From NCBI GenBank assembly GCA_002269645.1, contig NIVC01000245.1, forward strand, positions 682,001-746,000: 64,000 nt of DNA. Reading direction: 5' to 3'. Below are positions 12,820-55,812 of this stretch, in pieces. Each line of letters opens with the position of its first letter. Position 1 is the first letter of the stretch. The stretch is from Macrostomum lignano. Its lineage: Eukaryota. The translations under genes were made by a program, and so were the position numbers. The notes beneath the pieces were generated by a model. The model was not told the DNA's origin and did no database searches. It saw only the letters and a list, made by a program, of their open reading frames with translations.

Positions 12820-13194
12820 GGGGCCGTAGCCCAGCGGTAGCACAGCTGCTCTGGTGTGCCAGCGACCCAGGCTCGATTCCAAGTGCAGTCACATTAATTT
12901 GGGGCTGAATTGGAATCTCGGCTTCGCTCCGCTCGTGCAATTAACGGCCTTGAGAGCCAACCCCCCCCCCCCCAAGGCACAGTAAAGTGTACATGCCTAA
13001 CGATAATATAAAGTTAGGGCCGCTGTACACTCCTGTGTGAGTGTGTGCCTGCGTACGTATCCGCGCGCTTGTATGCCTGCTCAGGGGAGTCGGCGGAATG
13101 GGCAGCAATGCCTCTCGCCGGTTGTGTTCCTATGTTCCTATGTCGCTTAAAGTTCGCCAGGGTGCACACAACCCCCTGCCTTTAATAAAAAATA
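12820..13194 (+). mobile_element. tRNA-derived SINE, copy 1
   Basis: A-box-like TAGCCCAGCGGTAG and B-box-like GGCTCGATTCC, A-rich 3' end, and a homologous copy at 43153-43420. Confidence 0.7.
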
Positions 13195-14098: not shown

Positions 14099-14280
14099 CA
14101 GGGGCAGCGGAGCCTAATATTTTTGAGGGGGCACCGGGCACAGGGCAAGGGGGAGCACAGGTACCTTTGTAACTGCTAATTAGGGCCTAAAAATCTGAAA
14201 AGCACTAAAAATTATCGCGTGGACTCATTTTCTGGGGGGGGGGCACGTGCCCCCGGTGCCGCAAGCTCCCGCCGCCCATG
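14099..14280. mobile_element. 182-bp MITE inserted in the Helitron satellite region
   Basis: Imperfect TIRs CAGGGGCAGCGGAGC / GCTCCCGCCGCCCATG. TATTTAG occurs near both ends. The insert is absent at the homologous site near 10130. Confidence 0.6.
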
Positions 14281-15379
14281 TATTTAGATGAAGGATTCTT
14301 TAGATGCGGGTTATTTTGACGGGGGTTCTTTACGAGTAGATGAAGCATTCTATTGATAGGGGGATTATTTAGAGGGGAGATCTATGGATTATTTGGATGG
14401 GGATTCTGTGGATGGGGATTGTGATGTGAATTATTTGGGGGAGGAATCATTGGATATGGATGGATGGGGGATTCTTTAGATAGCAATGAATGGGGAAATT
14501 TTTTTGATAGGGATGGAGGGGGAATTATTTGGATGGGTATTCTTTCGATAGGGGGCTTCTGGGGCTTCTGTAGACGGGGGATTTCTTGAATAGGGGATTC
14601 ATTGGATGGGGAATTCTTCAGATGGGAGGATTCCTTGAATGGGGAATTCTTCGGATCGGTGATTCTATCGATGGGGTTCTTTGCATTGGGGATTTTGCGG
14701 ATGGGGAAATCTGTGGTTGGAGTTTGGACGGAAAGCCCCAACGGGGGTTGGAATTGGCTAGTCCAATATACTAAAAATGGTCTGTCTGTGTCTATCTATC
14801 TATCTATGTGATCGATTAGAGAAAAAATGGCTGGACCGATTTTGTTCGAACTTGCACTGTTCGATCAGAAATTTTCCCGTGACTGTACAGGCTAAGAAAT
14901 TGCTCGATGCTAAAGGCATTAAATATTCGAAAAACATGCTTTTTTGCAAAGGTCAAGCAAACTTTTCGACTTGAAATGCATTGTAAGAATGCTAGAGAAA
15001 AAACTGACTGGTTGAATTCTGATTCTGAAATAGATTGCATCATAACTGAATTGTAACTCCGACTTGAATTGAAAATGCAGTTTGGAAGCGTAGCACCAGA
15101 CTTGATTTAAATTGCGTAACCATGCATATTGTTAACTGATACTGACTGACTGAGAAATTGATTATGTCATAACTGCTTCGTGTGATTTACTCTATGCTTG
15201 GATTTTAAAGTGTTGAATTATATAAGTGCAAAATTTGATGTTATCAAAACGATGAGAGCTAGCCTAGAGGTGAACAAACTGAACTGCTAAATGCAGCAAC
15301 GATGGTTCGAATTTTCATAGAGTATAATTTTTTTAATTAAAGCTTTTCAACGTCAGGAAAACTAAAAGACTTTTTAAAA

Positions 15380-17520
15380 AGAAGCGTCATGTAATGAATC
15401 ATAGAAGCGTCATGTAAACAATCATAGAAGCGTCATGTAAACAATCATAGAAGCGTCATGTAAAAAATCATAGAAGCGTCATTTAAAAATCATAGAAGCG
15501 TCATGTAAACAATCATACAAGCGTCATGTAAACAATCATAGAAGCGTCATGTAAAAAATCATAGAAGCGTCATGTAAACAATCATAGAAGCGTCATGTAT
15601 ACAATCATAGAAGCGTCATGTAAAAAATCATAGAAGCGTCATGTAAAAAATCATAGAAGCGTCATGTAAAAAATCATAGAAGCGTCATGTAAAAAATCAT
15701 AGAAGCGTCATGTAAACAATCATGGAAGCGTCATTTAAAAAATCATAAAAGCGTCATTTAAAAAATCATAGAAGCGTCATGTAATGAATCATAGAAGCGT
15801 CATATAAACAATCATAGAAGCGTCATGTAAACAATCATAGAAGCGTCATGTAAACAATCATAGAAGCGTCATGTAAACAATCATAGAAGCGTCATGTAAA
15901 CAATCATAGAAGCGTCATGTAAACAATCATAGAAGCGTCATGTATACAATCATAGAAGCGCCATGTAAAAAATCAAAGAAGCGTCATGTAAACAATCATA
16001 GAAGCGTCATGAAAACAATCATAGAAGCGCCATGTAAAAAATCATAGAAGCGTCATGTAAACAATCATAGAAGCGTCATGAAAACAATCATAGAAGCGTC
16101 ATGTAAAAAATCGTAGCAGCGTCATGTAAAAAATCATAGAAGCGTCATGTAAAAAGTCATAGAAGCGTCATGTAAAAAATCATAGAAGCGTCATGTAAAC
16201 AATCATGGAAGCGTCATTTAAAAAATCATAAAAGCGTCATTTAAAAAATCATAGAAGCGTCATGTAATGAATCATAGAAGCGTCATATAAACAATCATAG
16301 AAGCGTCATATTAAAATCATAGTAGCGTCATATAAACAATCATAGAAGCGTCATGTAAACAATCATAGAAGCGTCATATAAACAATCATAGAAGCGTCAT
16401 GTAAACAATCATAGAAGCGTCATGTAAACAATCATAGAAGCGTCATGTAAACAATCATAGAAGCGTCATGTATACAATCATAGAAGCGCCATGTAAAAAA
16501 TCATAGAAGCGTCATGTAAACAATCATAGAAGCGTCATGAAAGCAATCATAGAAGCGCCATGTAAAAAATCAAAGAAGCGTCATGTAAACAATCATAGAA
16601 GCGTCATGAAAACAATCATAGAAGCGTCATGTAAAAAATCGTAGCAGCGTCATGTAAAAAATCATTGAAGCGTCATGTAAACAATCATAGAAGCGTCATG
16701 TAAGAAATCATAGAAGCGTCATGTATACAATCATAGAAGCGTCATGTAAAAAATCATAGAAGCGTCATGTAAAAAATCATAGAAGCGTCATGTAAACAAT
16801 CATAGAAGCGTCATGTAAACAATCATAGAAGCGTCATGTAAACAATCATAGAAGCGTCATGTAAAAAATCATAGAAGCGTCATGTAAACAATCATAGAAG
16901 CGTCATGTAAACAATCATAGAAGCGTCATGAAAACAATCATAGAAGCGCCATGTAAAAAATCGTAGAAGCGTTATATAAAAATCATAAAAGCGTCATTTT
17001 TGAAAAATCATAGAAGCGTCATGTAAAAAATTGTAGCAGCGTCATGTAAAAAATCATAGAAGCGTCATGTAAACAATTATAGAAGCGTCATGTAAAAAAT
17101 CATAGAAGCGTCATTTAGAAATTATAGAAGCGTCATGTAAACAATCATAGAAGCGTCATGTAAAAAATCATAGAAGCGTCATGTAAACAATCATAGAAGC
17201 GTCATGTAAACAATCATAGAAGCGTCATTTAAAAATCATAGAAGCGTCATGTAAACAATCATAGAAGCGTCATGTAAACAATCATAGAAGCGTCATGTAA
17301 AAAATCGTAGAAGCGTCATTTAAAAATCATAGAAGCGTCATGTAAACAATCATAGAAGCGTCATGTAAACAATCATAGAAGCGCCATGTAAACAATCATA
17401 GAAGCGTCATGTAAACAATCATAGAAGCGTCATGTAAAAAATCATAGAAGCGTCATTTAAAAATCATAGAAGCGTCATGTAAACAATCATAGAAGCGTCA
17501 TGTAAAAAACTAATGAAAGT
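15380..17520. repeat. 23-bp satellite (AATCATAGAAGCGTCATGTAAA[A/C])n, about 90 copies
   Basis: Continuous tandem array with no unique spacers. Confidence 0.97.
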
Positions 17521-18418
17521 GTCTTTTAAAAAATTAAGAAGCATCATGGTAGAATAAAAGAAGCGTCATGTCAGACATGAAGGGTGTCATGTAAAAATTA
17601 AATGCAGCTATAATGCTGTGCTGGGGAGAAAAAAACTGAGACATAAAGGCTCTCAGAGAATAACTGAGATTACGGGAGGGGGGGTTTCTGAGATGTCAAA
17701 GCAAAAGTCAGAAGCTACTTCAAAGTTCATGTACTTTACTCATTTTTTATTGCATTCTTTGTTGGCTCGCCACGGGGGGCGCTGATAGAAGAAGAGTCAT
17801 GTAAAAAATAAAAGTAGCACTACAAGCGTATGTATACATAAAAGAAAAGTCATGTTCAAGTTAAAAGATTCATTTGGGAATTGCTACGATGTCAAAGCTT
17901 GGTGGAAATCGTTATAGTGCTTGATTCTTAAAGAAGGAATCACTAAAATGTCAAGGCTTAGGGGAGAAGAATTGCTGAGATTTCAAGGCTTTAGGTTGGG
18001 TTAAAGTTAGGTTTAGGTCAGGTGTGGGTTGAGGGTTATATTTTATCGGGTTTCAAGGTTAACAGAATAACAGGGGATTTTTTAGATTTCAAGGTTTATG
18101 GGGGCCATCGCTGACATGTTAAGGCTTACGGGGGGAATAGCTGAGATGTCAAGGCTCACGGGGGTATAAATGAGATTTCAAGGCTAAAGTCAGAAGCTAC
18201 ATGTAGTTTATTGAAAACTTTTTATTACATTATTTGATGCCTCCTCAGGGGAGGGATCGCTGATAAAAAAAGTGTAATGTAAAAAATAAAAGAAGCTTCA
18301 TGTCGAAGTTAAGATATTCATTTGGGAATCCCTACGATGTCGAGGCTTGCAGGGAATCGCTATAATGCTGTAGTAGTGCTATTATGACTCTTAGAGAGAA
18401 TTACTGAAATTTCAATGC

Positions 18419-18475
18419 TTTAGGGTTAGGTTAAGGTTAGGGTTAGGGTTAGGGTTAGGCTAGGGTTAGGGTTAG
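18419..18475 (+). repeat. Interstitial telomere-like (TTAGGG)n tract
   Basis: About 9 perfect or degenerate TTAGGG units. Confidence 0.8.
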
Positions 18476-19305
18476 AAGGTTGACAGATATTTTTAGATTT
18501 CCAAGGCTTATTGGGGGCATTGCTGAGATGTCAAGGGGGGAAGTTGATATGTTAAAGCTTGTGGGGGGATTATTGACATGTCAAGGCTTACAAGGTTTGA
18601 CAGGAGATTTTTTAAGATTTCAAGGATATATATGTAGCTTATTAAAAAAACGTGTATTGCATTTCTTTGGCTCCCCAACGGGGGGCGTAGATTGCTAGTA
18701 GAATCTAAGGCTATATTTTTCTAAAATGTTCACACTTAATTCCAATTTGATGTACATGGATAAAAATATTACAATATAACTTCAGGAGGGCTACGGCTAC
18801 TCTGATGCAACGCTTCGGCAACATCGTTCTACAACGCCAGAGCTGACGGCAATTCTGCATGCCCATTCCACACTGACTCCTAAGCACAGACAAGCGCGCC
18901 AATACTGTACCCAGGCACGGATGCACTGATACACACACTCGCAACAGAATGTACCGCGTCACCGACTTTCTAATCATCTGGCATGTACATTCTCTGTGAC
19001 TTGGGGGCTGGCCCTCATGGGTGCGAAGCACACAACATCCTCCTGGCTTCAAAAGGTTAACTAGATTTCAAAACAACGCTAAGATCACATTGAACACATT
19101 TTCCAATAAGAAATTGTTTAAGTTATGTTGTAATGGAATTAGTTTCGAATTCATGTAAAACATGCGCTGTACGTGTTGCTAAAAAGCGATTTTAGAGTAC
19201 CAAATAAAATACCTATGATCTATTGGCGATACGTAGGCCATTTGGATTTGTTTAACTTATTCAAAATCGAGATCGCGCTGCGCAATGTAAATGCTTCCTA
19301 AATAT

Positions 19306-19999: not shown

Positions 20000-20284
20000 C
20001 TACCAATCACTATCACTGTCACTGATGTCGTTCTTTCTGTCTGGCCCGGCACTGTTGCACTCCACATATTCACCGTTAAATGCCATACACTTCAGATAGC
20101 GTTCGATCAGATTGTCAAACCCAGCCTTCCAGAAGCTGGAGTCCAGCTGGTGCAGCGATGCGTTAGCGGCGTCAATGACCTCCTGACGTGTCGTGAAAAC
20201 TTGCCCACGCATTGGCAACTTTATTGGACCGAAGAGATGGAAGTCGGCAATCGCGAGGTCGGGGCTGTAGGCTGGGTGACTTAG
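20000..20284 (-). pseudogene. mariner transposase, C-terminal part
   Basis: LSHPAYSPDLAIADFHLFGP..RGQVF..RYLKC..FNGEYVE. Confidence 0.9.
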
Positions 20285-21360
20285 TGTAGAGTGTTCTACC
20301 TCCCGTAAGAAGACATAAAAGTGTTAATGTACTACTCACACATTTTATTTAGTAGTAAATTGAAGAGCATGAATAAAGGTATGCTTTGAACTATAAGTAT
20401 ATTCGGACTAACCAATAGGAAGAGAGAGACCTCGAGCATGCTAATTTTAGAAATCACCCAATCACGTGCGACCAACAACTGTCAATTCAAACCCCACCTT
20501 CAAGTCATCATTTTGTTTGCACTCGGGTTGCACCCGGATGAACCAATCAAAGTCTACCAGCTACGGTAACCAATCATGCGCTTTTACAGTAGACTAGTTG
20601 CGCAACTTTCTACCCTGTCATGCTTGACAGCCACCGAATCGTGACCCTTTGACATTTGCGAAGACAGTGATGTACGACCTCGAGAGAGGTCTGAACGCCT
20701 ATAAATACAAGTGGTCCGGAACGGACCCGGAGCCAGAAAATCTCCAAGGGAGAGAAGCTCCGAAGAGGAAGCTCTAGTGAAGCCTTCCTGAAGAAACTCG
20801 CGTCGTGGACGAGTTCTTGCGGTAAGCCTTACTCATTTGCGCCCGTTGGTTGAGACGTCTCGCTCAAGTCTATTGAGACTTGAGTTTATTTGAGTCTGCT
20901 GAGACTCTTGAGTCTGTTTAGACTCCACTGGTTGCAGTCTCCAGAAGGACTGCCCCTGATAGATCTTAGAAGACTATCAGTGGTTTCCGGAGCCATACCT
21001 AGAGTGCATAGAGGCACTACTAGAAGGAGTAGGCTTATATTAAACCGCAGTTTGGCGCAGGGATCCCCATTGTTAATTTGGAAGCTTCCGATTGGTCCGA
21101 ACTACAGATACCGGCCGGCAAGAAGTCAAGAGGACAAAGGAGATAACGGACCAGATCAACTGTTACCAGGTGCCTAAACTTCCTGAAGGACAGGAAAGTT
21201 ACTGATCGCGATACTACGGACGAGGATTATTACGAGAGCTCTCATTTAAGGACTCAAAGGTAATTGAATACCTTCATTTGATTACTGGGTTGCCTAGCTA
21301 CAGAGCTAGAAGTGATTGTTCCTTGATTACAGTTGAGGACTGGTAATAAGGAACACATCA
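20285..21360 (+). repeat. 5' LTR
   Basis: TGTAGA...CATCA, direct repeat of 29915-30990, with TATAAATA near 20700. Confidence 0.97.
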
Positions 21361-21362
21361 AT

Positions 21363-21373
21363 TGGTGATCTCG
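21363..21373 (+). promoter_or_regulatory. Primer binding site, possibly tRNA-Trp
   Basis: TGGTGATCTCG lies 2 nt after the LTR. It resembles the Trp-type TGGTGACCCCG if two G:U pairs are allowed. Confidence 0.45.
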
Positions 21374-22056
21374 CCCTCTCGGCACTACTCAAACTTTTGA
21401 GCAATAGCCTGGCCAAGCTATTGTAAAGTGACGAAAGAGCGACTTAATTAATTTTGCGCGCACGTGTTAGAGGTAACACTTTTCGACACTTTTCGATTTT
21501 TGTACGATTTGAAACTCGAGTAAAAGCTTAGGTATACAGGCTTGAGTACCTGTCAATTTTGAGTAACGTTTGAGCACGCGTGTTAAATTTTTGTTTTTAT
21601 CGAGCTCGAGCAAGAGTAAACCTTAAACAAAACCGAAAACAACGTCCGGTACACTGAAAACAAACCGAAAAATAATCAATACACACTAAAACAAAACCGA
21701 AATTAAAAACACTTGACGAAAGCTAAAACAAACCGAAATTTGATAAAACGTGACAAGGCACGTCACGAAGACAAGAAAGGCCTTTGAAAAAAGCAAGAAG
21801 CAGCTGCACTTCAAGCACTTTAAAGATACACTTTGCGGGACGCCGCATAAGTGCGAAAATCAGCCAGCGAATAAGAGGTCAGAAAAAGCAGCCAAAAGCC
21901 GAATTCCGCTCAAGGTCAGACATAACAAATTGAGGTGTCAAAAGCACCGCAAGACAATCAGTTACAACCGAAGTTTATTTCGAAAGAAACACCACACTGG
22001 AAGATCCATTACAAATCGACCCAGACCTAGAGCTACCGTTCTATCCCATCAACAAC

Positions 22057-23722
22057 ATGGCGCGGCGCAATCCAACGGTGCACAGAGATATCAAAGAGAC
22101 AGTTGGCACCTTTTCTATGGAAAAAGACTTTAACACCTTTGTTGATCATTTTGACCTGGTATGTAGGGAATACAACCTACAAAATCCAGAAAAAGCGCAA
22201 CTGTTGCCACCACTCCTCCAAGGCACTGCACGAGAGATTTATGGTAAACTAGATGCGGCAACACAGCAAAACTACCCAGCATTAATCATTCAACTGCGCG
22301 CGCATTTCAACCGCTGTGGCACAAACAGATCAGTGCTACTGCACAAGTTGCATAACAGAAGGATGCAGCCAACCGAATCCTTCCTGACCTTTGTGGACGA
22401 CATCCGTCAGATAATTAAGGCACTGCATCAGCCAACACTGCCAGCTGCAGACCAACCACCTCTGGGTGCGGCAGAATTAGCCGCTAGAGAGCGACAGCGA
22501 TTGATGGATCGCGAACAAAATCTGATTCTGCACGTAATAAACAATGCACAGCCGTCACTCCGAGATAGACTTCTACGCGAAAACATTGAAACCGAGGAAG
22601 ACCTTTTACGGTGCGGAATGCAGTGGGAAGCAAGCGCTCCACTAATGACAACCGGCAACACAGAAGTGCAGAAACTGACACAGCAACTAAACAAACTGAT
22701 GCAACATCAAACAGCCGTTATCGCCGAACAAAAAAGACGAAATGAACGAGCCCAAGCCAGATGCTATTACTGTGGACGAGAAGGACACTACCAAATACAT
22801 TGTCCTCATCGGTCAACAAGAAATGACATGCAGCGACAGCCATTCAACAGAAGGAAGCCGCAAAAACCATGGCAACAACATCAAAATTGGCAGCAGCAAA
22901 ACACGAAACGCTTCGGAAACAATGGCTACAGACCGCGAAACACCAGATACATGCCCAAGCAACCAACGCAAGCGATGCAACGATATGCAAACGCCATCAC
23001 GTACACACCGGAAAGCGAACAGCAAGAGCAGCAAGTCTTCACGATAGACGACTTAGAAATGGACTTCACTATCAATGAAATCGACTGGCTCGATGCGGAG
23101 AGCAGCGAAAAGACAAAAAACATCAGCATGGTCGAAATGAAAGAAACTAACATTGACAGCGAAGAAGAAAAGACAGAAGTGAGCACAGAAAAAACATTGT
23201 CAAGCGACATCAGTGAAAGAAAAGAAGAAACAAACAAAGGCAACGACAAAGAACTGGCAACGAAGGATGACAACGAAAGAAGCAACGACGGAAATACAGA
23301 GATGGAAGAAGAACAGCAAGAAGAAAGCAGCGATCACGATTATGAGATGCAGAATGACGCTGATGACAACCAAGCCGCCGACAAAGAACATGAAGACGGA
23401 AGGCACAAAGGAATGGAAGAAAGAAATCTAAGCTCCGACAGCGATCAATGCTACGAGATCCGCTATAAACGAAATGGTGAAGCCTACATCAAACGGTCGA
23501 CTACAAGGCCGAAGTGAGGTACCGCAGACAATGGAGTGACACAACTACAACATCGGAAGAAAGCAAGGAAGAAAATGATGAAGACGACAAGCAGCGGAAC
23601 GAATCGGATGCCTTGCGCTCGGAAACGCCAATGGAACAAGAGGAAGAATACGATGCGGACGTAGAAGATAACGAATGGCAGCCGCAGCCAATGCCAGCAA
23701 AGACAACGGCAACGTTCAGAAA
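22057..23722 (+). CDS. gag: Gag (capsid, CCHC zinc knuckle, long acidic linker); -1 shift near 23512
   Basis: Gypsy capsid-like N-terminus (FNTFVDHFDLVC..KAQLLPPLLQGTAREIY) and CYYCGREGHYQIHC knuckle. The E/D-rich tail continues in ORF 23514-23753. Confidence 0.9.
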
Positions 23723-25729
23723 ATGGCGATCTGGATATTCTGGATCATCATAATACTACTGACGGCAGTAGTCACCAAAGCAACAGCAATGGAAAACCAA
23801 TGATATGTCCAACGGATGCGCATATCCAACCGATGATCTACAAGATACCAACCGACATCAAATGCAGCTACTTCAAGACAAATCAGACGAAGCCAAAGAA
23901 GATCACAATTGATCTCTACAAAGCTAACATCAAGAAGCATCGACAACTCGGAATAGTGTGCTTTAGAGACAAGCACCTAGTGGAAAAAGTTTGGCGAGGA
24001 CAATGGAACAGAATTCGATTTTGGCAACACGAACTACATGTGTCGCACGCTGAATGTCTACAATGGAACCAAACACTGTTCTCAAAGGATGGTCAGCTAG
24101 AACCGGATGAGAAAGTGGGGGAGGCACAACTTTACCGAACGAAAACTCAGCAAACGGACGATATGTACACTTTTCGGAAGCATGGACTAACTACATGACA
24201 CGAAACAGTTACCTAATCAGGAATATTCCATTCTACCACAATCCTTTTGAAAAAATGGAGTCGCTACAACTGCAATTAAGTGACTGCCGATACAGCAAAG
24301 GATGGTGTCCAACGCCGATACTGCGGAATGAGGAACTATACAGCTTACCGTTGAGTCCAACATATCATCAAGACTATCGATGGCAAATAATACGCAGAGG
24401 CGACTCACGATATGAAGAACCATCTAAGTCACGACAATACTTCTTCGCGTGGGAAGTTGAGCCGGAAATTGACTGCAAGCTTCAAAAGTATCACACAGTT
24501 GAAGGAGGTCTACTGTCAAACACGTTTTTGGCAAAGTCAGGAGACTTGGCACTGACGTTTCAAAAGAAACCAGTCGAGCAAAAACTGAAATGCAAGGATA
24601 CAGACAAGACACTATTCATCTCGGAACAAGAGATACCAGTCTACGTAAAAGAAGACGACAAACAAACCTTTCTGGCGATCATCAACGGAACGTATCAACA
24701 GCAGGAACAACAGAACAGACGACGACGAGACATCGAACGTCCCAAACTGGTGTCAAACCGACTACTGTCAGCAAAGATAACGGCTTTGGATCACAATCTA
24801 CACAACCAGTTAAACCACTTGCATCGAACACTGGTCCAGCTAACTTGCAAAATGCACGCAATCAACTTAAATTATGCCAGACAAAACTACTATGTCAACC
24901 CTACGATGACTTTTCGTAAAATCACCGGAATGACGAACGTTTTGGCAGTTCCAATATACGAGCATCTGTTGATATACAAGTGCACGCCGATACAGCACTT
25001 TAACATCTTGCCGTCGAACACGTCAACAACCTGCTACGACAAGCCAAGGATTGAAGCGTTCTACGAAGGAAAACGAATTCAGGATTCTTGGACACGGTAC
25101 ACAACATCATAGTTGGCACCGCAATACCGAGACCCTGCACCACGGCAGCAAACTACTATCAACTGGACAATGCACTACACGTCATCAAAACAACTGGAAC
25201 GACAGCAAACATCACAGAACCGGAAGTAATCGTCGACGAAAACTACGACATGGAGGATTTGAAAATCCGATTCAACAGAACGAAGTATACGCCATTCGCC
25301 GATATCCAACTTGACGAGATAACACCAGGATGGACGATCAACGACTTCTTGCAAGCGTTCATCACCCAACGCAAGATGATTCACCAGCTGTTCACAAGAA
25401 AGGACAAAGGAACCGGGACAGGAAGATTTCCCGTCCTTGTTTCAATGGACAGCGCCATCAAATCATTTTGGACAAACAGCTTCTGGGAGCTGCTCAATGG
25501 AAGAGGCAGTCTCTATCAAGGATTCATCTTCTACGGTGCTTGCATTGTGTGGATTGTCACGGCAATCTTCATCATTTCGTCGATCGTACGGTGCTTCAGT
25601 CAAACTTGTCCAAGAGCTAAGAAGACAGTTAATGCCATAATGCAAAGAACGACAACGGAAGGCGACAACAGTTTAGAACTAACAGAAACTGCACATCGTG
25701 AGGTTCAAGGGCAACCGACACTAGCAACG
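23723..25729 (+). CDS. env: Env-like class III fusion glycoprotein embedded between gag and protease; -1 shifts near 23792, 24185 and 25082
   Basis: Signal-like MAIWIFWIIIILLTAVVTKATA (23723-23788), RRRR furin site (24717-24728), six N-X-S/T sequons, gB-like Cys/helix pattern, and TM FIFYGACIVWIVTAIFIISSIV (25523-25588). Confidence 0.85.
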
Positions 25730-28700
25730 CGGCTATATCCATCGATTCCGACAACACCAACGGCACCAAGAATACAACCACCCAACTATCAAGCAGAACA
25801 GCAAGACCCAAAATGGCCAGAGAACTACGTATGTACTCTACACGCCGAAATTGGCAAAGCCATGGCTCAAGTGGTAATCAACAATCTACCATGTCGAGCG
25901 CTACTCGACTCCGGCAGCTCCATCACAGTTATATCAAAACAACTGTGCAACAAGCTACGACTTGCTCTACGGCCAGCAACAATCGCAGTTGCAGGAGCAG
26001 GAGGACATTCGCTAAACATTCTGGGAAAAGCCGACATTGATTTAAGAATCGCTAATAAACACTTGACAGTTCCAACGTACGTCATCGACAGACTCCCAAA
26101 CCAGGACGTTATTGTTGGCATCGACACGTTCAAGCAGCTTCGACTACCATTGACCTTCGACTTCAATAAGCAAACGTTCAAGATCGACTCGGTAGAACAA
26201 CCATTGATCAACCAGATCCGAGTACTACCAAAAGTAACATTGCAACAAGATGTCATCATCCAACCGGAGAGCGCCTGCTGGATAAAGGCAAAGGCAACTA
26301 ACGCAACGGAGGAAGCAATGATATTCGACCCAAACAGAAGAGTCACGGCTAAACACCAAATTATGATGCCTACGGCACTAGTACTGGTTGCAAAAGATAA
26401 ACAGCTGCCAGTACAAATATTCAACCCGAACACAGAAACGGTTCATCTACGACAAGGAATGTGCATCGGTCATCTCAACACCCAAGCATCGGTTATGCTG
26501 ATTGAGCAAGCGACTCCACGACTAACAGAGGAAGAATTTCAAAAGAAGATCAATTTGGATGACAGCCCGATTACGGAACAGCAAAAGAGGAAAGTTCGAC
26601 AGCTGTTGTGGAAGTACAACGACGCTTTCTGCCACCATGACTACGACATCGGACGAGCCAAGGACATCAAACAGGAAATCAAACTTCTGCCGCACACGGA
26701 ACCAATTCAGTGCAAACCGTACCCGATCGCCAAGCATCTGCAACAGCACTTCGATGAGATTATCGACAAAATGCTGAAACACGGCATCATCAGCAAAGCC
26801 ATTTCAGCATACTCATCACCATGTCTCTTGGTACAAAAGAAGGAGACTAACGAAAGACGACTCGTATGTGACTTCAGACTGCTGAACAAGTACATACCGA
26901 CGGATCAGCAAAGCCTACCGAAGATCTCCGAACTACTAGCAAAGCTCAACACGGCAAAATTGTTCACAGTGTTCGACCTACGTCATGGATTTTGGCAAAT
27001 TGAAATCGAGAAAGAGTCACGACAGTACACGGCTTTCAAAACCTACAATGGACAAGTATACGAGTACAATCGATCGCCGATGGGACTCAGCAACAGCCCA
27101 GCAACGATGAGCCGACTAACAGCATACATGCTTGCAGGATGCACGAACCTGTTGCACTATGTTGACGACATCTTGGCCTACGGAGAAGACTTCGAACGAC
27201 TCTATGAAGCGACGGAGAAGGCCCTCGCGCTTATCAACGACAAGGTCTTAAGCTACAACCAACTAAATGCAAATTCTTCCGAGACAACGTGCGTTACCTG
27301 GGACATCAGGTGACAGCCAAAGGAATTTCACCGGACCCAGACAACGTGGATAAAGTGAAAAAGTTTCCTACGCCAACTAGCAAAACGAAGGTCCAATCAT
27401 TTCTTGGACTTGCGCAATACTTCCGAAAGTTCTTACCCAACTTCGCGAAGACAGCAAAGCCGCTGTACGACCTGCTCAAGTTCGACAAATGGAAGCAGGA
27501 GAATTGGACACAAAAGCAACAAGAAAGTTTTGACGAAATCAAACGACAGCTGACATCAGACGCACTGCTACAGCATCCGGACTTCGACAAACCCTTCATC
27601 ATCGAGACAGACGCCTCAGGAACGGGACTCGGAGCAGTCCTACTACAGGAAACTGAAGACAAAAAGGAACGACCTATAGCCTACGTCAGTCGAGCACTTA
27701 AACCGAATGAGACAAAATGGTCAGCTACGGAACGAGAACTACTAGGAGTTCTGTTCGCCCTACGACAGTTTCACTACTACATCTATGGATCTCCATTACA
27801 GACGATAGTACGCACAGATCATGCACCGCTGACCTACGTCGTAACTACAAAAGGACAAACAAACAACCGACTCATCAGGATGACACTCAAGATCCAGGAC
27901 TACAACTACAAGCTCGTCTACAAACCAGGAATTACTAACAAGGCCGCGGACGCCCTGTCAAGAGCCTACGAAGTCAACGCCATTCATCCAATCCCTAACA
28001 TCAAGGAATTGGTGGATGAGACTGAACACGACAACTTCTACATAGCAGTTAAAAACAACGACAAGGACATCAAGCTCAGCCCCGTGGAACGAAAATTCCT
28101 GCGCAAGCAGCGACAACATTTAACAATCAACAAGTCACGACTCTACTGGATGAGTGACAACAAACCTAAAATCTACATGCCATATTCGTTTAGGCAGGCA
28201 ATTCTCAACGAGCTGCACGACAACCCACTCGCTGGACACCTGTCGGCAGCCAAAACCATTGCAAGAGTGGAGCAATACTACTTTTGGCCAAGCATGCATG
28301 GCGACATCAAGCAGTATTGCAACAACTGCCACTCATGCGCAGCATCAAAGACAGGACGACGACAAAAACCACAGCTACAATCGATACCAAAGTCAACAAC
28401 TATGGACTGTCTCAGCATCGACATCACCGGACCGCTGCCACCGAGCTGTCTCCATGGCATAGCCTACACCTACATCCTAACAGCCTTGGACATTTTCTCA
28501 AAGTTTGCTATTGCCATACCAATACCGGACATCACAGCTCAGACAGTGGCAATGGGTTTCTTCAACGACATCATCTGCAAGTACGGTACGCCAAAGAACC
28601 TCACATCGGACAATGGATCGCAGTTTACGTCTCAACTCTTTCAGCAAGTGGTGAAGATCCTCAACATCACGCAGATCTACACATCGACCTACAATCCGAA

Positions 28701-29370
28701 GGCGAACATGGTTGAAAGGTTTCACCGCAACCTACACGAGATGATTACACACTTCGCGCATCAACAACCGGACGACTGGATCATCTATCTGCAAGCAGTA
28801 ACAATGGCCTACAACAGCGCTATTCATCGATCAACGGACAATACGCCATTCTTTCTAATGTTTGGGCGAGACTTCCAGCCGCCAAACCTATTGGCACAGC
28901 AACTACTACCATCGCAATATGTGGAAGTCCCGACGTCCATTCAAAAGTTCGTCACGCAACTACACCTCGCATGGAAAGTAGCCAAGCACAACATCGACAA
29001 TCAGGTGGCTCTAACCACCGGCACCGACACGAGATCGACAACTCTGACAGCCGGCGACATCGTCTACCTGCACTATCCGCCGCAACAGACGCACAAACAC
29101 GCACAGAAGTACAAAGGACCATATCGAGTGGTCCAACTAACGTCATCGACAACGGCACGCCTGGCCAATGTGCAAGATCCTCATCAGCACCAATTCTACG
29201 TGCACATTCATCGACTAAAAAAGATCAACACTGACACGACAACGTTTTTACCGTCACTAGACAACGCTGATCGCACGCGTTCGGCGAACCGCCACATCGC
29301 AACAAAACACGAGGAGACACAAACATCAACCGAGAATCAGCAACATGGCTACAATCTGCGACCTCGTTAA
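25730..29370 (+). CDS. pol: Pol: aspartic protease, RT, RNase H, integrase; -1 shift near 27243
   Basis: LLDSGSS, RLVCDFRLLN, FDLRHGFWQI, YVDD, IETDASG, HHCC (LHDNPLAGH..CNNCHSC), D-D-E (IDITG, SDNGSQF, VERFH) and KYKGPY. Confidence 0.95.
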
Positions 29371-29481
29371 GTTGCGAAAACAACCCGTGTAGAGACCGGG
29401 TCAGAATAGCTCTACAGCTTCGCAAGCTTGTCGTAAGAGGCGACTAATCTGAGCGACTTCAAACTTCAAGCGACGACGACA

Positions 29482-29775
29482 ATGGGCAACGCACTGTCCA
29501 AACAGGCGCCCCAACTACAGCAACTCTATGAATGCCCAATATGTTTAACTGATGACTTGGCTGTCAAGCCACCAATTATTTGTGAAAACAGACATCGCAT
29601 ATGCGGACAATGTTTAAGCGACTCACATTATATTCAGCTCTGGCAGAATTGCCCGATAGGTAGAAGAGTTTGCGGCAGTGCGCCTATTGTTAGTCTTGGC
29701 GCACATGTCAATACTGTAACCAAAAACATTTCATTTGCATGCGTATACTTACCTTTAAATAACTTTTATAACTAA
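29482..29775 (+). CDS. Small accessory RING-finger protein with N-myristoylation motif, 97 aa
   Basis: MGNALSK start in good Kozak context (ACAATGG). CPIC-x11-C-x3-H-x2-C-x2-C-x12-CPIG(R): the last ligand is G (GGT, one base from TGT), with another C four residues later. Confidence 0.7.
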   Translation: MGNALSKQAPQLQQLYECPICLTDDLAVKPPIICENRHRICGQCLSDSHYIQLWQNCPIGRRVCGSAPIVSLGAHVNTVTKNISFACVYLPLNNFYN

Positions 29776-29914
29776 CGCTCTTAACTACCCATTACTAAAT
29801 ACCTGTAACACTTGTGACAAAAGATTTTTATAAAGACATGCTCGTACTTTTTATGCGTTTCAATCCTCTATAATTTAAAACTCGGGACGAGTTTTTTGTA
29901 AACATGGGAGATTT

Positions 29915-30990
29915 TGTAGAGTGTTCTACCTCCCGTAAGAAGACATAAAAGTGTTAATGTACTACTCACACATTTTATTTAGTAGTAAATTGAAGAGCAT
30001 GAATAAAGGTATGCTTTGAACTATAAGTATATTCGGACTAACCAATAGGAAGAGAGAGACCTCGAGCATGCTAATTTTAGAAATCACCCAATCACGTGCG
30101 ACCAACAACTGTCAATTCAAACCCCACCTTCAAGTCATCATTTTGTTTGCACTCGGGTTGCACCCGGATGAACCAATCAAAGTCTACCAGCTACGGTAAC
30201 CAATCATGCGCTTTTACAGTAGACTAGTTGCGCAACTTTCTACCCTGTCATGCTTGACAGCCACCGAATCGTGACCCTTTGACATTTGCGAAGACAGTGA
30301 TGTACGACCTCGAGAGAGGTCTGAACGCCTATAAATACAAGTGGTCCGGAACGGACCCGGAGCCAGAAAATCTCCAAGGGAGAGAAGCTCCGAAGAGGAA
30401 GCTCTAGTGAAGCCTTCCTGAAGAAACTCGCGTCGTGGACGAGTTCTTGCGGTAGGCCTTACTCATTTGCGCCCGTTGGTTGAGACGTCTCGCTCAAGTC
30501 TATTGAGACTTGAGTTTATTTGAGTCTGCTGAGACTCTTGAGTCTGTTTAGACTCCACTGGTTGCAGTCTCCAGAAGGACTGCCCCTGATAGATCTTAGA
30601 AGACTATCAGTGGTTTCCGGAGCCATACCTAGAGTGCATAGAGGCACTACTAGAAGGAGTAGGCTTATATTAAACCGCAGTTTGGCGCAGGGATCCCCAT
30701 TGTTAATTTGGAAGCTTCCGATTGGTCCGAACTACAGATACCGGCCGGCAAGAAGTCAAGAGGACAAAGGAGATAACGGACCAGATCAACTGTTACCAGG
30801 TGCCTAAACTTCCTGAAGGACAGGAAAGTTACTGATCGCGATACTACGGACGAGGATTATTACGAGAGCTCTCATTTAAGGACTCAAAGGTAATTGAATA
30901 CCTTCATTTGATTACTGGGTTGCCTAGCTACAGAGCTAGAAGTGATTGTTCCTTGATTACAGTTGAGGACTGGTAATAAGGAACACATCA
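29915..30990 (+). repeat. 3' LTR
   Basis: Direct repeat of the 5' LTR with one difference noticed (A20825 vs G30455). Preceded by a short purine tract GGGAGA. Confidence 0.97.
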
Positions 30991-31837
30991 TTAGCTGACG
31001 AAAGCCCAGCTCTTCCACCTTGGCGCGAGTGCGAGCAGCGGCATGCGGACGCGCGTTGTCCCAAAGGATGAACGGCTTCTGACGCATGATTCGGCGCTTG
31101 GATAGAAAGGCAGCACGCAGTTGCTCGAGCTGGTTAATCACATAGTCGGCATTGATTGTCTGGCCCTGCGGCAGGTAGTCGACGAGTAGCATGCCTCGCG
31201 CATTGAACCACACTGCACATGATGTTCTGGGTCCAGGCCGACTTCATGGCCTTTGTGTGTGGGTGCCGTCCCTTTGGCCCCCACTGCATCGACTGCTGCT
31301 TTGTCAGTGGATTAAACATTGCAGCGGCGTCTCGTCCATTGTGATTACAAGCTCCTTGAACTTCTCATCACCAAGCTCGTTCCAGACAGCCCAGTTGTCT
31401 GCCGAACATCGCACCCGTGCTTTTTTGTGTTCTTCTGTCAGCTCTCGTGGCACCCACTTAGCGCAAATCTTCGACCAGCCGTGGCGTTATAGAATGCGAC
31501 TCACAGACAAGCAGTGAACGCCGCACACACTCTCCACTTCACGCACACATGCAGATGGGTTTGCCTCCAAATATTGGAGCACGGCAGCCGCATTGTTGTC
31601 ACCTGTGCTGGAACGCGGACGGCCAGAGCGAGCAGCATCAGCGACGCTTGTTTGACCATCAGTAGCAAGTCAATGGTGGGCAAACACCTGTGTGCGACCC
31701 AACGCATAATCACCGAAAGAAGTGCAAACTTCGTTAAAAGTCTGCGTTGGTGTCTTACCCATGTGCTGACATGCCATAATAAAGCAACGTTGACTTTCTT
31801 TCGAATCAAAATCTGAGTGATTTTTTGGTCGGCTCAT
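30991..31837 (-). pseudogene. mariner transposase, N-terminal part (frameshifted)
   Basis: MSRPK..QRCFI..GKTPTQTF helix-turn-helix region, RSGRP, WVPREL, TMDET and WDNARPH. D to D spacing across the insertion is 34 residues. Confidence 0.9.
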
Positions 31838-33272: not shown

Positions 33273-35025
33273 CTAGCTTTGCAACCAAAGTTCATGTCTC
33301 AAAGTTGAGTTTCGTCCCTTCATTAACTTTCGTTGATCGATAGCCGAAGTCGCAGCCGAGCTGCAGGCGATCAGACAGTCGTGAAGGAGTTCAACAGCTT
33401 CCAGCATGGTCAGCAGCGAGCAGCCAAGGTACAGACCGAGTAATCCACCTGTGTCAGCAATCAGGTCGATAAAACTATACGACTTCTCAATGAGAACTGC
33501 TGAGCCGAGACTCTTGCCGGTGTACACTCGAATTCGCATCATTTGGTCTTGCAAGTAATTCGAGCCGACAACTATATTGCGGGTGGTCAAGTTATTCAGC
33601 AAGCTATTGGTTATGTTCAAGACTTCATCATAGCCAGGAAAGTGCGCAGCGGGATTTTCTAGCCTTTTCTCCTGAACGCGATACTGAAACCCGGCTAGAA
33701 GGTCGCGCTGAAAAGCGGAAAAGACTCGTGGCCAGTTGCTAAACGAGTAGGCGTACTTGAAACGGTCCGTCTGACAAGGCCGAAGTTTGGCGCAGTATTG
33801 ATGAATGGCATTCTGATAATTCCAATATAAAGCTGGGTTGTTTTCTTTGAAAAACTGTTCAGCCGACGCCTGACCTGTGAGAACGCGGCTGGCATTCGAG
33901 CAGCTTCGAGCGTGGATAAACTTCCGATCGCGAGGTAACAGGTGACTCACACAGCCGCTTTGCTGCATCATGAGCTGGTTACTTCGTTCGGCCCGACAAA
34001 GGTACTCGCTAAATGCATAGGCCGTCTCGGTGTGATCGTACGGACTGATGATGCGACTGGGCTCAGGGCTACTCGAGCACTGCATTCCTTTGCCAGAATG
34101 AGCCTCTCATCTCGAGGTCGATTCGATAGTCTTTTCCAGCGCTGAGCTGAATCATGGACTCGGAGTCCGGATAGTGACCAGGTCGAACGAAATAAAGGTT
34201 TACACCAGATGCAGTCTCGGGTTTAATGCCATTCTCAAAGTCCCATGAAAGAAAGCTCAGCTTTGATGTGTTTATTGTTGCAATCGGCAGTAGTGACGAT
34301 TTTTTTGGGAATTCAAAAAATGCACCATCCAAAAATAGTGTCATCTCTAAATAGCTGCCCTGATTGCTCAGCTCTGGTCGCTGCGATGGCGTGGGCACCA
34401 GGCGAATGCAGTTAAGGTCCCTAAAGCTGTGAAACGGTATTTCCCCAACTGGTGCTTTTGGCGAGCCGTTCAAGATCAGCATGAAAAGAAACTGCTTCAT
34501 ATGATGACCCAGTTTGTCGCTTATAAGGCGAAATGGCATTGTGGATAGAAGAATGCTTGCCAACCTGGCTGCATCAAAAAAATTTTTAGGTGACCCACCA
34601 AAGGCTAAAGTAAGACTTTTGACATAGCTGTTTATTTCGGCTGTGCTGTTGGGATCCAGGATGTACGGATAACTCCCTGACATGATGGCATTGTTGCAGA
34701 TGACCAGATCGGGGAACTCGAACTCCACCGAGTTCTGCTGCAGCGTGGTGGTCTCTGGCTGCTCGTTGTAGGTTTTGATGAAGCTCTGCACCTGTGTGAC
34801 AAAGCCGGTGAGGCAGAGCGCGAAGCCGACAAGCCAGATGACCTTGACGTAGATCGGACGGGACCCCACGAGTCTTCCGAGGCCGTGAGCCGTGGTGTCG
34901 CTCAGCCATGAGTGCACAGGGTGCGATAGAATCTCCTTGATTCCTTTCCGTTGACAGCCTGGATTCGTTGATTCGACAACTTGCTGTTCTTCTGTCATCG
35001 TGAGTCTGGAATGCTGATGTTCCAA
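33273..35025 (-). CDS. Intronless DEG/ENaC (ASIC-like) channel, copy 1; apparent frameshift near 34075-34110
   Basis: Pre-TM1 TTAHG motif, TM1 VIWLVGFALCLTGF, FPDLVICN, Cys thumb, and TM2 DTGGLLGLYLGCSLLTMLE (GxS filter). Two 1-nt homopolymer deletions relative to copy 2 explain the break. Confidence 0.88.
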
Positions 35026-37107
35026 TTTTTTGATGATGTTCCAATGCTTGGGCTATACGAGATCTGGTTGCAGTTGCAATTGAGACTAAAGGCATGTTTT
35101 TGCGAATGATAGATACAGCTGAGGTTTCGTACACTGAAGTTCGTATCCAATTATCGTGGGGATTAAAAGTCTTGGTATTGTCACTGGAATTCTATGATTT
35201 TTTAATTTTCACTATCAAATATTGTCAAGAATTTTCAAGCTTACCTTATTTAAATGTTATCCTATCTTCGTATACAACGCTGGTGATAAATTTTTTTTTA
35301 AGTTCTGTGGTTTGAGCGGGTTCAAGTTAAACCGTCACTTGCTATTTAATACTCTCTTTTTGCCATCATCACGAATGTTTGTCAGCGATTGTGAGCTAAT
35401 GGAATGACAAACAATAGATTATTAAACAGTTGAATATCAGGCATAAAGCATGTGCGAGTGACTTATTGACACTAGCAGCTTCTCTAGACTGCAATTAGTT
35501 AGCAGACTATCAGACCTGATCAGACCTGAAGCTATTCGACCTATCTTGTCTGTACTTATCCCTCTGTAAATTTGCATGGGAGTTATGATATGTTTAATCA
35601 AGCTAGTGTTGACTTGGGAAGTCGTTGACCTCATCAATTCGACTATATCAAATTGCAATGCTAATGCCGTTCACAACACAGTAGCCAGCCAGTTGCCTTT
35701 TATTGAAACAGATCAAATTTATTACTTCAGTGTCATAATTTCCAAAGTAAGGACTGTAATTAACACGTAGCTTGTATTCCTCAAAAATGGATGACTATGA
35801 GAAATAGCTATCCATGGAGAAATGAAATGGAGGAGGACACTACGCTCTGTTTTCTTAGAAATGAGAGGATGGCCGGTAGAGTCGTTGCATGGAGTTTCGG
35901 CCATAAACAATTCGAGTATTATTTGCAAATAATCGAGCAAAAAATCCAACGTTTCGTGAGCTGACTAAATGCACCAGCGATACGACAGATATTCGTTCGT
36001 TTCCGGGCCTGTGTTATCGCGTTATCGTGTGTAATTGAAGCCGCCGGTTACTCTCTGACTTACTGTACTATTAACAGTGTATTATCTGCCTCTAATTTAT
36101 TCCTTAAAAGGGCACGCTCTAAGTGGTCAATTAAGTCCAAAACTGTCGAAAAAATTTTCACGCTTTTGTCTGATTTTAAACAACTCAACAACCTCCAGCT
36201 TTTATTTCCAAGAAACTTGAGTGTGGTGTCCTTCTACTTGAGTTGTCCATGTAGCGATCATCAGCTTCTGAACTTTTTATGGATTTTATTGACAAGTTTA
36301 TCTTGAAGAAAGAGTTTAGAACAGTTTAAGTTTTGCCTAAACTTTTAAAGCAATTTCTCAGACAAAACATTTGCCCACGGAAAAGTATGACTAATGGAAA
36401 TAGAGAGTTCAATTTATGATTTTCTCATTGCACTGTTGTATGCATTTGGATACTTTTGATGGTAATATTACCGATATCAATCCAGTTCTCTATGGCGCTG
36501 CGTGTAATAAAAACACCTGTCAGTCTGTTCAAACAATTAGTATGAACAATTATAGACTTCAGAAATAGCTAGTAAGCTAGTCTTGGGTGAATAAAAAACG
36601 GTTTATTATTTTTTTCGGCTTTAATTCCGCTACTGACGGGAACGACAGTCATTATTATAAACTGAAAAATAATTGCTGAAAACCGAATAAGAAAGGGTAA
36701 AAGTACAAGAGGGTAGAATGGTGTAAGAGCAGAAATTCAATTAGTGGGCAAAACGTGAAGAGGTGCATTGTAAAGTATTGCGCCGATATTTTGGGCAAAA
36801 GATCGATTGATTAGTAAAATTAATTAAAACAGTAAAATAAGCAAGGGATCTTGATTCTAATCAAGAATCAAAATTACAACTTCGAATGTTTTATCAGTTC
36901 CAATAATTTGTTGACTAAATGGGCTTGAACACTATTGAATTCTTGTACATGCAAAGAACAGACAGTAAACAACAAAAAATAAAGATATTCTGAATTTTTG
37001 TTTCCTTAAAATCGATTCGGCTACGTGATTTGGCAAATTATAGCTTAATAACAGTAAACAACATTATATAGAATTACTGAATCAGTATTGTTACACCTGG
37101 ACAAACC

Positions 37108-38911
37108 CTAAACTTCTAGGTCAGTCACACTCACATTCGCATCGTCGTCTTGCTGATGACGCTCGGCCGCAGCTCTGTCCGTCGTGTCACTCTCCATCTC
37201 ATCGGACTGTCTCCCACTGTTAGCAAAATTTCTTCCATTGAGGGCCGTTGATGCGGTCGAGAAGCAGGCGAGCAGGCAGTCGTGAAGGAGTTCAACAGCT
37301 TCCAGCATGGTCAGCAGCGAGCAGCCAAGGTACAGACCGAGTAATCCACCTGTGTCAGCAATCAGGTTGATCAAATCGTAGGCCTTTTCAATCTGAACCG
37401 CTGAACCAAAGCTTTTCACAGTGTGCAGCCGTATACGCATCAGCTGGTCATGCATGTAACCCGAACCGATAACTATGTTGTGCGTGGTCAGGTTATTTAG
37501 CATTGAGGTAGCTATATTGCTCAAGTCATCGTAACCAGGAAATTTACACCAGGAAAAGTGCTCCTTTTTAGCTGAACTAACGTCTGAAAGTGTTCAATAA
37601 TTTCGTGCTGAAATGACGATAGAATGCGGGGCCAGTCGCTGAAAGAGTAGGTGTACTTGAAAATGTCAGTCTGACAGGGTCTTCGCTGGGTGCAGAACTG
37701 CTGAATCAACTTCTGGTCCAGATTCGTACTAAAATAAGCCCCTCTTTCTATTTCACTAAAAAACTGACCGACTGACACCTGACCACTGAAAACTCGACTG
37801 GCGTTCATGCAGTTGCTGGTGTTGATAAACTTCCGATCGCGAGGTAACAGGTGACTCACACAGCCGCTTTGCTGCATCAGGAGCTGGTTACTTCGTTCAG
37901 CCCGACAAAGGTACTCGCTGAATGCATAGGCCGTCTCGGTGTTATCGAACGGACTGATGATGTGACTGGGCTCAGGGCTACTCGAGCACTGCATTCCTTT
38001 GCCCAGAATGAGCCTCTCAATCTCGAGGTCGATTCGATAGTCTTTTCCAGCGCTGAGCTGAATCATAGACTCGGAGTCCGGATAGTGACCAGGTCGAACG
38101 AAGTAAACATTGACTCCGGCTCCAGAAACTAAGTTAATGCCATTCTGAAAATCCCAGGCGAGAAAGTTTATTCCAGTTGAGTTTGCGATCGGAATGGGGA
38201 GCAGTGAGGAGTTCTTGGGGAAGTCAAAGAATGTCCCATCCAAGAAGAGACCGACTTCCAGGTAACTGCCCTCAGTGCTCAGGATTTTTCTCTGGTCTGT
38301 AGTGGGCTCAATGCGAATGCAGTTTAGCTCCGATGGACTGTAAAACTTTTTTGCTGGAACGATGTCCCTGTGAAGACCGTTAAGAATTGTCAAGAAGAGA
38401 AACTGCAACAGCTGATGACCCATGGCCTGACTAACCAGTCGGTAAGGCATGGTTGCCAGAAGGGTCTTGGCTAGAATGCCAGTATACAATTGATTTGGTG
38501 GCACGCCCATCATCCCGATGAGCTGAGTGACATAGCTGTTTATTTCGGCTGTGTTGTTCGGGTCTAGAATGTACGGATAACTGCCCGACATGATGGCATT
38601 GTTGCAGATGACCAGATCGGGGAACTCGAACTCCACCGAGTTCTGCTGCAGCGTGGTGGTCTCTGGCTGCTCGTTGAAGGTTTTGATGAAGCTCTGCACC
38701 TGTGTAACAAAGCCGGTAAGGCAGAGCGCGAAGCCGACAAGCCAGATGACCTTGACGTAGATCGGACGGGACCCCACAAGTCTTCCGAGGCCGTGAGCCG
38801 TGGTGTCGCTCAGCCATGAGTGCACAGGCTGCGCCAGAAGTACTCGGAGTTGTTCGCTGGTCTGTTTTGATTCTTTTCGGTGAAATTTTCATCAGAATTT
38901 TCCTGCTTCAT
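37108..38911 (-). CDS. Intronless DEG/ENaC channel, copy 2; apparent frameshifts near 37540 and 38840
   Basis: Same motifs as copy 1. Adding one T in a T-run restores NFPGYDD (copy 1 has HFPGYDE). The start at 38911 (MKQENSDE) is inferred. Confidence 0.85.
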
Positions 38912-45950: not shown

Positions 45951-45984
45951 TAACTGCAATATGTATCGGCTTCCCCAGTGTCAG

Positions 45985-51560: not shown

Positions 51561-51561
51561 C

Positions 51562-55423: not shown

Positions 55424-55812
<389 letters not shown>

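Follow-up and report, generated by a model that had tools for sequence, protein, structure and literature searches.

The element at positions 20285–30990 of the window (the whole 64,000-nt stretch of DNA that was analysed) is a recent insertion of a multi-copy Ty3/gypsy ‘errantivirus’ in the flatworm Macrostomum lignano. The account that best fits the evidence overall, and very probably the right one, is of a young errantivirus copy whose family makes a polyprotein with a glycoprotein B (gB)-like Env placed in the middle and Pol presumably tethered to it, whose frameshifts are most likely assembly errors, and whose relatives carry a cassette of RING genes. A preliminary description of the locus had argued for a non-nematode, flatworm host; named protein records bear this out and supply the species. 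The TTAGGG tracts on which it had partly relied are weak evidence, as at least three units occur in succession at a single place in the 64,000-nt stretch.

The bounds originally proposed stand. Two LTRs of 1,076 nt (TG...CA; 20285–21360 and 29915–30990, forward strand, as are all features below unless stated) differ at one position; the 5′ copy has TATAAA at 20700. The insertion is flanked by the duplicated target TTAG (20281–20284 and 30991–30994), and 11 of 13 other family copies also have 4-bp duplications. Specificity for TTAG or for telomere-like DNA was considered and rejected: those 11 duplications are variable, and merely lean to xxAG. A 12-mer primer-binding site (PBS; 21363–21374) is identical to that in the published table row for Mlig_errantivirus_2; a search did not identify the priming tRNA. 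A purine-rich tract (29900–29911), assigned a putative function from its sequence, precedes the 3′ LTR. TG...CA LTRs, a tRNA-type PBS and a short target duplication are all as expected of Ty3/Gypsy elements. The LTR leader contains a candidate GT-AG intron (20822–21107), with the joint present in one of four sequencing runs (X12, its RNA status a guess); as the LTR sequence is common to many other copies, the joint is not specific to this locus. Identity with a heat-shock LTR family was also rejected: the focal LTR lacks a canonical heat-shock element, and a 20-nt LTR probe found no match in the supplements of PMC12801592, the long cells of which were partly covered. The element sits inside a mariner transposase relic, which it splits. 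The right part (30991–31243, reverse strand) matches PF01359 (E 3e-9); the left part (about 20000–20284) gives no Pfam match, and we read it as the continuation of the relic from a mariner-like motif.

Between the LTRs, domains follow in the order CCHC knuckle, acidic linker, hydrophobic signal, ectodomain, transmembrane helix (TM), protease, reverse transcriptase (RT), RNase H and integrase, so that a signal, ectodomain and TM do lie between the Gag end and the protease, as first described. Gag (22057–23020) starts at the first ATG past the TATA box region and includes a knuckle at 22762–22809 (zf-CCHC E 0.055, under the cut-off); the acidic linker (23020–23700) is 34% D/E in sister copies. 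The internal signal (23700–23795) has basic residues, a hydrophobic core and an A-x-A site; it is followed by the class III, gB-like ectodomain (23795–25500), with an RRRR furin site at 24717–24728, and the TM (25511–25590). The aspartyl protease (25868–26137; PF13650 E 8e-11) is in the same frame 3′ of the TM; then come RT (26834–27500; PF00078 E 2e-19), RNase H (27505–27903; PF17919 E 2e-37) and integrase (28180–29370; H2C2, core and C-terminal part, up to the pol stop). The proposal that Pol continues in frame after the TM thus holds in part: the open frame 25055–27313 runs from the C-terminal end of Env through TM and protease into RT, most of which it contains, but RNase H and integrase are in a frame different from that of the protease. 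The pol order PR-RT-RH-IN is that of Ty3/Gypsy (Metaviridae), and named RT-RH matches at 38–41% identity are labelled Ty3-I, 412, 17.6 or Gypsy, an assignment by record labels. The pattern of Retroviridae, with a class I Env 3′ of pol, does not apply: this Env is class III, and 5′ of pol.

The family encodes one gag-env-pro-pol polyprotein of about 2,430–2,500 residues. At least 13 full-length internal matches are present at 98–100% identity (among 18 of 181 candidates scored), as is a sister subfamily (40 of 119 candidates scored). The gag-to-integrase frame is unbroken in 2 of 18 copies examined; genome-wide, 11 of 81 env matches lie within open frames that are 2,400 codons long or longer; and a named M. 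lignano protein record is unbroken from within Env to integrase. Pol is conserved (pN/pS 0.08). In 8 of 18 long relatives scanned, a single chain contains Env with RT after it, and the gag-env-pol order recurs in a second M. lignano family and in one nematode record. A quick RT tree (53 of 124 rows) groups the family with that second family (SH-aLRT 95) and separates a group containing the Panagrolaimus record (96); deep nodes are weak, and nematodes are sampled by one named env-pol record. The tree fits a shared ancestry with the nematode elements as well as the independent env capture that the preliminary description had offered as one of two options. The single polyprotein first proposed is therefore a property of the family and not of the focal copy, in which the coding span is divided into five long ORFs plus the frame of the signal.

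Six single-base frameshifts account for this division: near 23,500 in the acidic linker, near 23,700 and 23,800 where they break the signal, near 24,100 and 25,100 in the ectodomain, and near 27,300 in RT. They are most likely assembly errors. The competing idea is that the family model is right and the locus itself dead, the six being true mutations and the copy having been mobilised in trans; some indels are indeed common to several copies (8 of 28 are found in two to four of the ten copies compared), and no more than 16 of the 28 fall within base runs, where the background is 42%, so that some of the 28 may be real mutations. A dead locus is improbable, as six real frameshifts unaccompanied by a nonsense change or a longer indel would hardly be expected where the LTRs are one base apart. 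Over the ten copies, all 28 frame breaks are single-base losses, 20 of them private and none shared by a majority; and no in-phase stop occurs over 2,433 codon columns. At five of the six focal breaks, contigs from all four runs differ from the focal sequence, among the rows listed; these contigs are collapsed across copies and so do not single out this locus. The idea of a nested insertion peculiar to one copy, or of a membrane protein of non-viral origin, as the source of the env-like stretch merits almost no credence. Weak Pfam scores (Env and the zinc knuckle are both under curated cut-offs) would be in keeping with it; it is refuted by the fold of the stretch and by its presence in dozens of copies, and further opposed by purifying selection on env (pN/pS 0.13) and by the same placement in distant relatives.

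That fold resembles herpesvirus gB (Foldseek E 1.6e-21), so the suspected likeness to viral glycoproteins was borne out. An alignment-based AlphaFold model of the Env of a sister copy (pLDDT 80, pTM 0.57; 31.5 pLDDT from the single sequence) matches gB of KSHV, HSV and EBV at E about 1e-21 and TM-scores of 0.41–0.48, and also matches nyami/rhabdo-like glycoproteins, a Nyavirus glycoprotein being the second-best viral fold match. The model supports assignment of the insert to class III (gB-like) envelopes. The ectodomain thus resembles herpesvirus gB and other class III fusogens in fold; it differs from gB in sequence (10–15% identity) and in being embedded in a retroelement polyprotein.

Downstream of pol the lineage has a further component. 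In sister and related families, pol is followed, ahead of the 3′ LTR, by two or three tandem-RING genes; in one diverged family these come immediately after the integrase C-terminus. The C3HC4 zinc-ligand pattern, two adjacent per gene, is present in all nine full-length genes aligned; Pfam Sina_RING matches are below cut-off. Between two subfamilies dN/dS is 0.10 and 0.19, indicating purifying selection; pairs from diverged families are saturated and unusable for this purpose. The focal subfamily has lost most of the cassette yet spread: the second gene is absent, and the first is a truncated remnant (29482–29775) of 70 residues lacking zinc ligands, its RING pattern incomplete. The preliminary description had passed over this reading frame. 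No relatives of the RING genes were found at E ≤ 0.01 among 33 candidates. ESM Atlas matches, all under 0.9, are mostly to giant-virus proteins and serve as a lead only. Judged by sequence, the genes may well, on balance, encode ubiquitin ligases that act on host defense or on budding.

How such a polyprotein might be made and packaged can be sketched from its features, which fit the topology originally predicted (cytosolic Gag, internal signal, luminal Env, TM, cytosolic PR-RT-IN). Gag would be synthesised in the cytosol; the internal signal would then direct the ribosome to the ER, where signal peptidase would release the Env N-terminus. Alpha- and flavivirus polyproteins are an analogy for what this cut may leave behind, a Gag that keeps a membrane anchor. 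The TM would halt transfer, and furin would cleave the ectodomain. Because the polyprotein is continuous and contains an internal signal, we infer that Pol would sit on the Env cytoplasmic tail rather than on Gag, PR-RT-IN staying there until the protease frees it. Gag, Env and Pol would be made 1:1:1, with no frameshift; Pol would enter particles via Env and not as Gag-Pol; and particles would bud, then fuse with neighbouring (germline) cells.

Two rival accounts, one of expression and one of the RING proteins, bear on this sketch. One DNA frame might be expressed in split form: an RNA spliced from the LTR donor could start Env(-Pol) at a Met before the signal, or env could be spliced out to give Gag-Pol and intracellular transposition. 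Pol is usually packaged by Gag-Pol fusion, the LTR joint noted above comes from one run guessed to be RNA, and an in-frame Met some 30 residues upstream of the predicted signal cleavage site would allow a separate initiation of Env. Such splitting is nonetheless unlikely: of 24 joints, the 15 listed include no GT-AG joint that enters or spans env, in contigs of four runs, none recorded as RNA; and the gag-env frame, unneeded under split expression, is kept in copies and in distant relatives. By analogy with arenavirus Z, a myristoylated RING protein, the tandem-RING proteins might instead be matrix-like membrane adaptors rather than anti-defense ligases, since the first RING gene of the focal family begins MGNxxS and Gag has no such start; a role of this kind has a low probability, as two diverged families lack the myristoylation-like start, the focal subfamily spread with its remnant, and the second M. 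lignano env family has no cassette at the places scored. The Env-tethered route and the ligases can be joined in a larger proposal, of an actively infectious flatworm endogenous virus that packages its enzymes via the Env tail, signal peptidase parting Gag from Pol during synthesis, and that uses its own expanded set of tandem-RING ubiquitin ligases as counter-defense, supplied in trans to subfamilies without them; this is conceivable and offered tentatively.

The second M. lignano family is represented by PAA86625.1 (2,852 aa; hypothetical protein/RNA-directed DNA polymerase), which has 100% matches in the genome and carries CCHC, hydrophobic segment, env, TM, PR, RT, RH and IN in one chain; its Env is 29% and its RT-RH 39% identical to those of the focal family. 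Nematode endogenous retroviruses (NERV) whose ORF is continuous and whose Env is nyamivirus-like are reported to have been described by Sacco et al. (2022, J Gen Virol). The present family shares with that group the position of Env before Pol and, at family level, the continuous gag-env-pro-pol ORF reported for it; it differs in its host, a flatworm. For the nematode elements, Env before Pol is cited in PMC13524379.

The preliminary description had suggested a new host range for the architecture, which does not hold. Chary & Hayashi (eLife 2026, PMC13524379) describe errantiviruses of Nematoda, Bryozoa and Platyhelminthes as GAG-ENV-POL with HSV/gB-type Env; as the gene order and its occurrence in flatworms have both been published, there is no extension of host range. 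The family shares the features of that group: it occurs in many copies flanked by LTRs, its env is placed between gag and pol, and a signal and a TM bracket a gB-type ectodomain. Their Supplementary file 1 includes a 16-copy M. lignano element, Platyhelminthes_Rhabditophora_Mlig_errantivirus_2, which has species, HSV/gB-type Env, GAG-ENV-POL order and the 12-nt PBS in common with the focal family. Compared by table dimensions and PBS rather than by aligned sequence, it is close to the sister subfamily: its LTR-to-LTR offset of 9,727–9,728 is near the period (9,729 nt) with which two copies of that subfamily repeat in tandem, and its PBS-to-pol-stop distance of about 8,181 (our arithmetic from the published table and methods) is near the 8,175 and 8,186 of two sister copies. 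The focal subfamily is shorter (offset 9,630; PBS to stop 8,002–8,013), and its gag has diverged. In bdelloid rotifer LTR elements, too, accessory ORFs follow pol ahead of the 3′ LTR; these captured ORF3s are F-type env, GDSL esterase or DEDDy nuclease (PMC5408684), and ‘RING’ and ‘zinc’ are absent from the main text of that paper, as are ‘polyprotein’, ‘fused’, ‘RING’ and ‘zinc finger’ from that of PMC13524379. No published description of a tandem-RING accessory class for LTR retroelements was found.

Two points go beyond PMC13524379. In this flatworm family gag, env and pol form a single unbroken polyprotein with a signal inside it, which predicts that Pol travels tethered to Env; and in sister and related families a conserved set of tandem-RING genes follows pol, possibly an undescribed kind of retroelement accessory gene. 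As a young and abundant example in a genetically tractable laboratory animal, the family makes the production and movement of gB-type errantiviruses directly observable.

The element lies on the plus strand at 20285-30990, in LTRs of 1,076 nt each (20285-21360 and 29915-30990), with a TTAG target-site duplication flanking both ends and a PBS starting at 21363; the insertion site is a minus-strand mariner relic, recognized by profile evidence in its right part. The LTRs differ by one base (20825 vs 30455), which falls at position +4 of a candidate splice donor. The env-like stretch is bracketed by the only two strongly hydrophobic segments of the coding span. The preliminary description had Pol following the TM in the same frame, and so it does: the open frame 25055-27313 covers the C-terminal end of env with its TM, the protease and the greater part of RT. 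The accompanying claim of a single polyprotein holds at the level of the family; it is not literally true at this locus, because six frameshifts (near 23,500, 23,700, 23,800, 24,100, 25,100 and 27,300) split the copy. In one public sequencing run (X3), contigs cover the LTR (20285-21568) at roughly tenfold the depth seen in the internal region and include many LTR variants, which suggests many solo LTRs or related families.

Dense minisatellite arrays with periods of 3-33 nt, including a 23-mer in 95 copies, lie at 8000-18600 and 45000-63500; a trypsin-like protease exon fragment sits amid repeats at 48892-49494, and 18420-18475 holds a brief, degenerate run of TTAGGG. A non-LTR retrotransposon (3154-6951, plus strand) encodes an endonuclease along with RT and RNase H and is interrupted by a single in-frame stop; two tandem ENaC/degenerin channel genes, 3.9 kb apart and apparently intron-poor, occupy 33273-38888 on the minus strand.

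Further copies, anticipated in the preliminary description, are present: a genome search gave at least 13 full-length internal matches at 98-100% identity, window included (18 of 181 candidates scored), and a sister subfamily with diverged gag (40 of 119 scored). The family has inserted recently at multiple sites: 4-bp duplications accompany 11 of 13 other copies, one having unmatched flanks and one lacking its 3' end in the fetched stretch; two of the 13 have flanks in common. Several copies cluster on single contigs of the genome (G000:C2121, C1130, C87, C2447, C669), some at one-element spacing; these are possibly tandem arrays or loci resembling small-RNA clusters. The subfamilies look mosaic, and Env identity of 91-100%, set beside gag DNA at 76-80% and differing 3' cassettes, suggests that they may have recombined.

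At family level there is a single reading frame. Ten aligned copies contain no in-phase stop across 2,433 codon columns; every one of the 28 breaks in the frame is the loss of a single base; 20 are private and none reaches a majority. The gag-to-integrase frame is unbroken in two of 18 copies examined, with each junction open in 6 to 16 of them, and 11 of 81 env matches (78 of 259 candidates scored) sit in a frame that stays open for 2,400 codons or more. Contigs from four public runs disagree with the window at five of its six breaks, among the matches listed, though such contigs are collapsed and do not speak for any one locus. We read the breaks as probably assembly errors for the most part; contrary to this, eight of the 28 events are common to two to four copies, and base runs are only slightly enriched for such events (16/28 vs a 42% background).

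Env is gB-like and under selection. The preliminary description had staked the env assignment on structural likeness to viral glycoproteins; the ectodomain of a sister copy, modelled from an alignment (pLDDT 80.1, pTM 0.57), matches herpesvirus gB structures, KSHV gB foremost (E 1.6e-21, TM 0.47, 13% identity), and also nyami-, rhabdo-like and chu-like glycoproteins. Among ten copies pN/pS is 0.13 in env, from 75 synonymous and 36 replacement variants; it is 0.08 in pol and 0.26 in the linker. The ectodomain has 12 cysteines, six sequons and an RRRR furin site. At about residues 555-580 of the chain, counted from the gag start in three natural copies, basic residues, a hydrophobic core and an A-x-A motif follow one another, the pattern of an internal, cleaved signal.

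The host, earlier judged flatworm-like, is identified as Macrostomum lignano by a named protein record, 96% identical over the common env part and unbroken from inside Env through integrase. A second M. lignano record (2,852 residues, 100% match in the genome) represents a separate family with the same gene order. Among 18 of the longer of 54 env relatives, eight have env then RT in one chain, a nematode record (Panagrolaimus superbus) being one of these eight. Another of the 18 belongs to Bel/Pao and has its env behind integrase. In two env-before-pol relatives (P0036, P0053) the TM is followed by two aspartyl-protease motifs. A quick RT-RH tree built on 53 of 124 rows joins the two M. lignano families (SH-aLRT 95) and separates them from the nematode record's group (96); its deep nodes are weak, and the two groups may share a single origin. 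NERVs with a continuous ORF were reportedly described by Sacco et al. in 2022.

The suggestion of a new host range fails, because Chary & Hayashi (PMC13524379) already report such elements from flatworms, M. lignano included: errantiviruses of Nematoda, Bryozoa and Platyhelminthes have HSV/gB-type Env only, in the order GAG-ENV-POL, and are not monophyletic. Nine flatworm elements are tabulated there, among them Mlig_errantivirus_2 with 16 copies. Compared by species, PBS and dimensions, it has the PBS of the window element, while its LTR offset (9,727-9,728) and its PBS-to-pol-stop distance (about 8,181, derived arithmetically) fit the sister subfamily (9,729-nt tandem period; 8,175, 8,186) and not the window's own (9,630; 8,002-8,013). 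As the main text of that paper contains neither 'polyprotein' nor 'fused', showing the flatworm ORF to be continuous adds a little, though the paper's figures or repository may already show it. Ustyantsev et al. (PMC12801592) classified M. lignano LTR families in a main text without the words 'glycoprotein' or 'RING'.

Downstream of the pol stop and ahead of the 3' LTR lies a small plus-strand ORF (29482-29775) with an MGN start and a RING-like pattern, overlooked in the preliminary description. In nine of ten copies it encodes 70 residues and its set of zinc ligands is incomplete; a sister copy's 3' region is longer than the window's by about 1.2-1.3 kb. In other subfamilies the first RING protein has 219-222 residues, with two C3HC4 patterns side by side and a helical C-terminal part; behind it comes a paralogue about 210 residues long, sharing 29% identity across 137 residues (E 5e-14). 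At least 150 genome rows match the first gene (150 of 240 candidates scored) and at least 112 the second (150 of 201). Some belong to families at about 40% identity, in which two or three such genes stand in tandem; several sets lie about 6 kb downstream of env matches. Between two subfamilies dN/dS of the RING genes is 0.10 and 0.19. No relatives were found outside the M. lignano genome, none of 33 candidates reaching E <= 0.01 and Atlas leads all being under 0.9; nor were RING accessory genes of LTR elements found in the main texts of PMC13524379, PMC12801592 and PMC5408684, or in a literature search with most subscription papers outside its reach. One diverged relative (L046, G000:C301:247000-252000) has an env N-terminal-like stretch joined straight to the integrase C-terminus, after which come two intact RING genes. 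Identical scores at six places suggest an amplified deletion derivative that kept the cassette.

Most plausibly, to judge from their motifs, the RING proteins would be E3 ligases that counter host defence or assist budding. A matrix-like role, to which a myristoylation-like start might point, is the weaker reading, since two diverged families lack that start and the window's own subfamily has managed to spread with only a remnant of the cassette; that subfamily was possibly helped in trans by others' RING proteins. As to expression, the internal signal would target the chain co-translationally to the ER, signal peptidase would release Gag, the TM would act as stop-transfer and furin would cleave Env, leaving PR-RT-IN on Env's cytoplasmic tail; such a scheme predicts equimolar synthesis, and packaging of Pol through Env, not as Gag-Pol. 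The main rival is that spliced RNAs carry expression, and a GT-AG joint in the LTR leader, from one run guessed to be RNA, leaves room for them; the same joint hints that the LTR family is transcribed. Splicing is also how the RING genes are likely to be expressed.

The element is real and well supported, and its headline architecture is known already at phylum and species level; what sets it apart as a variant is the tandem-RING cassette and the predicted Env-tethered Pol.
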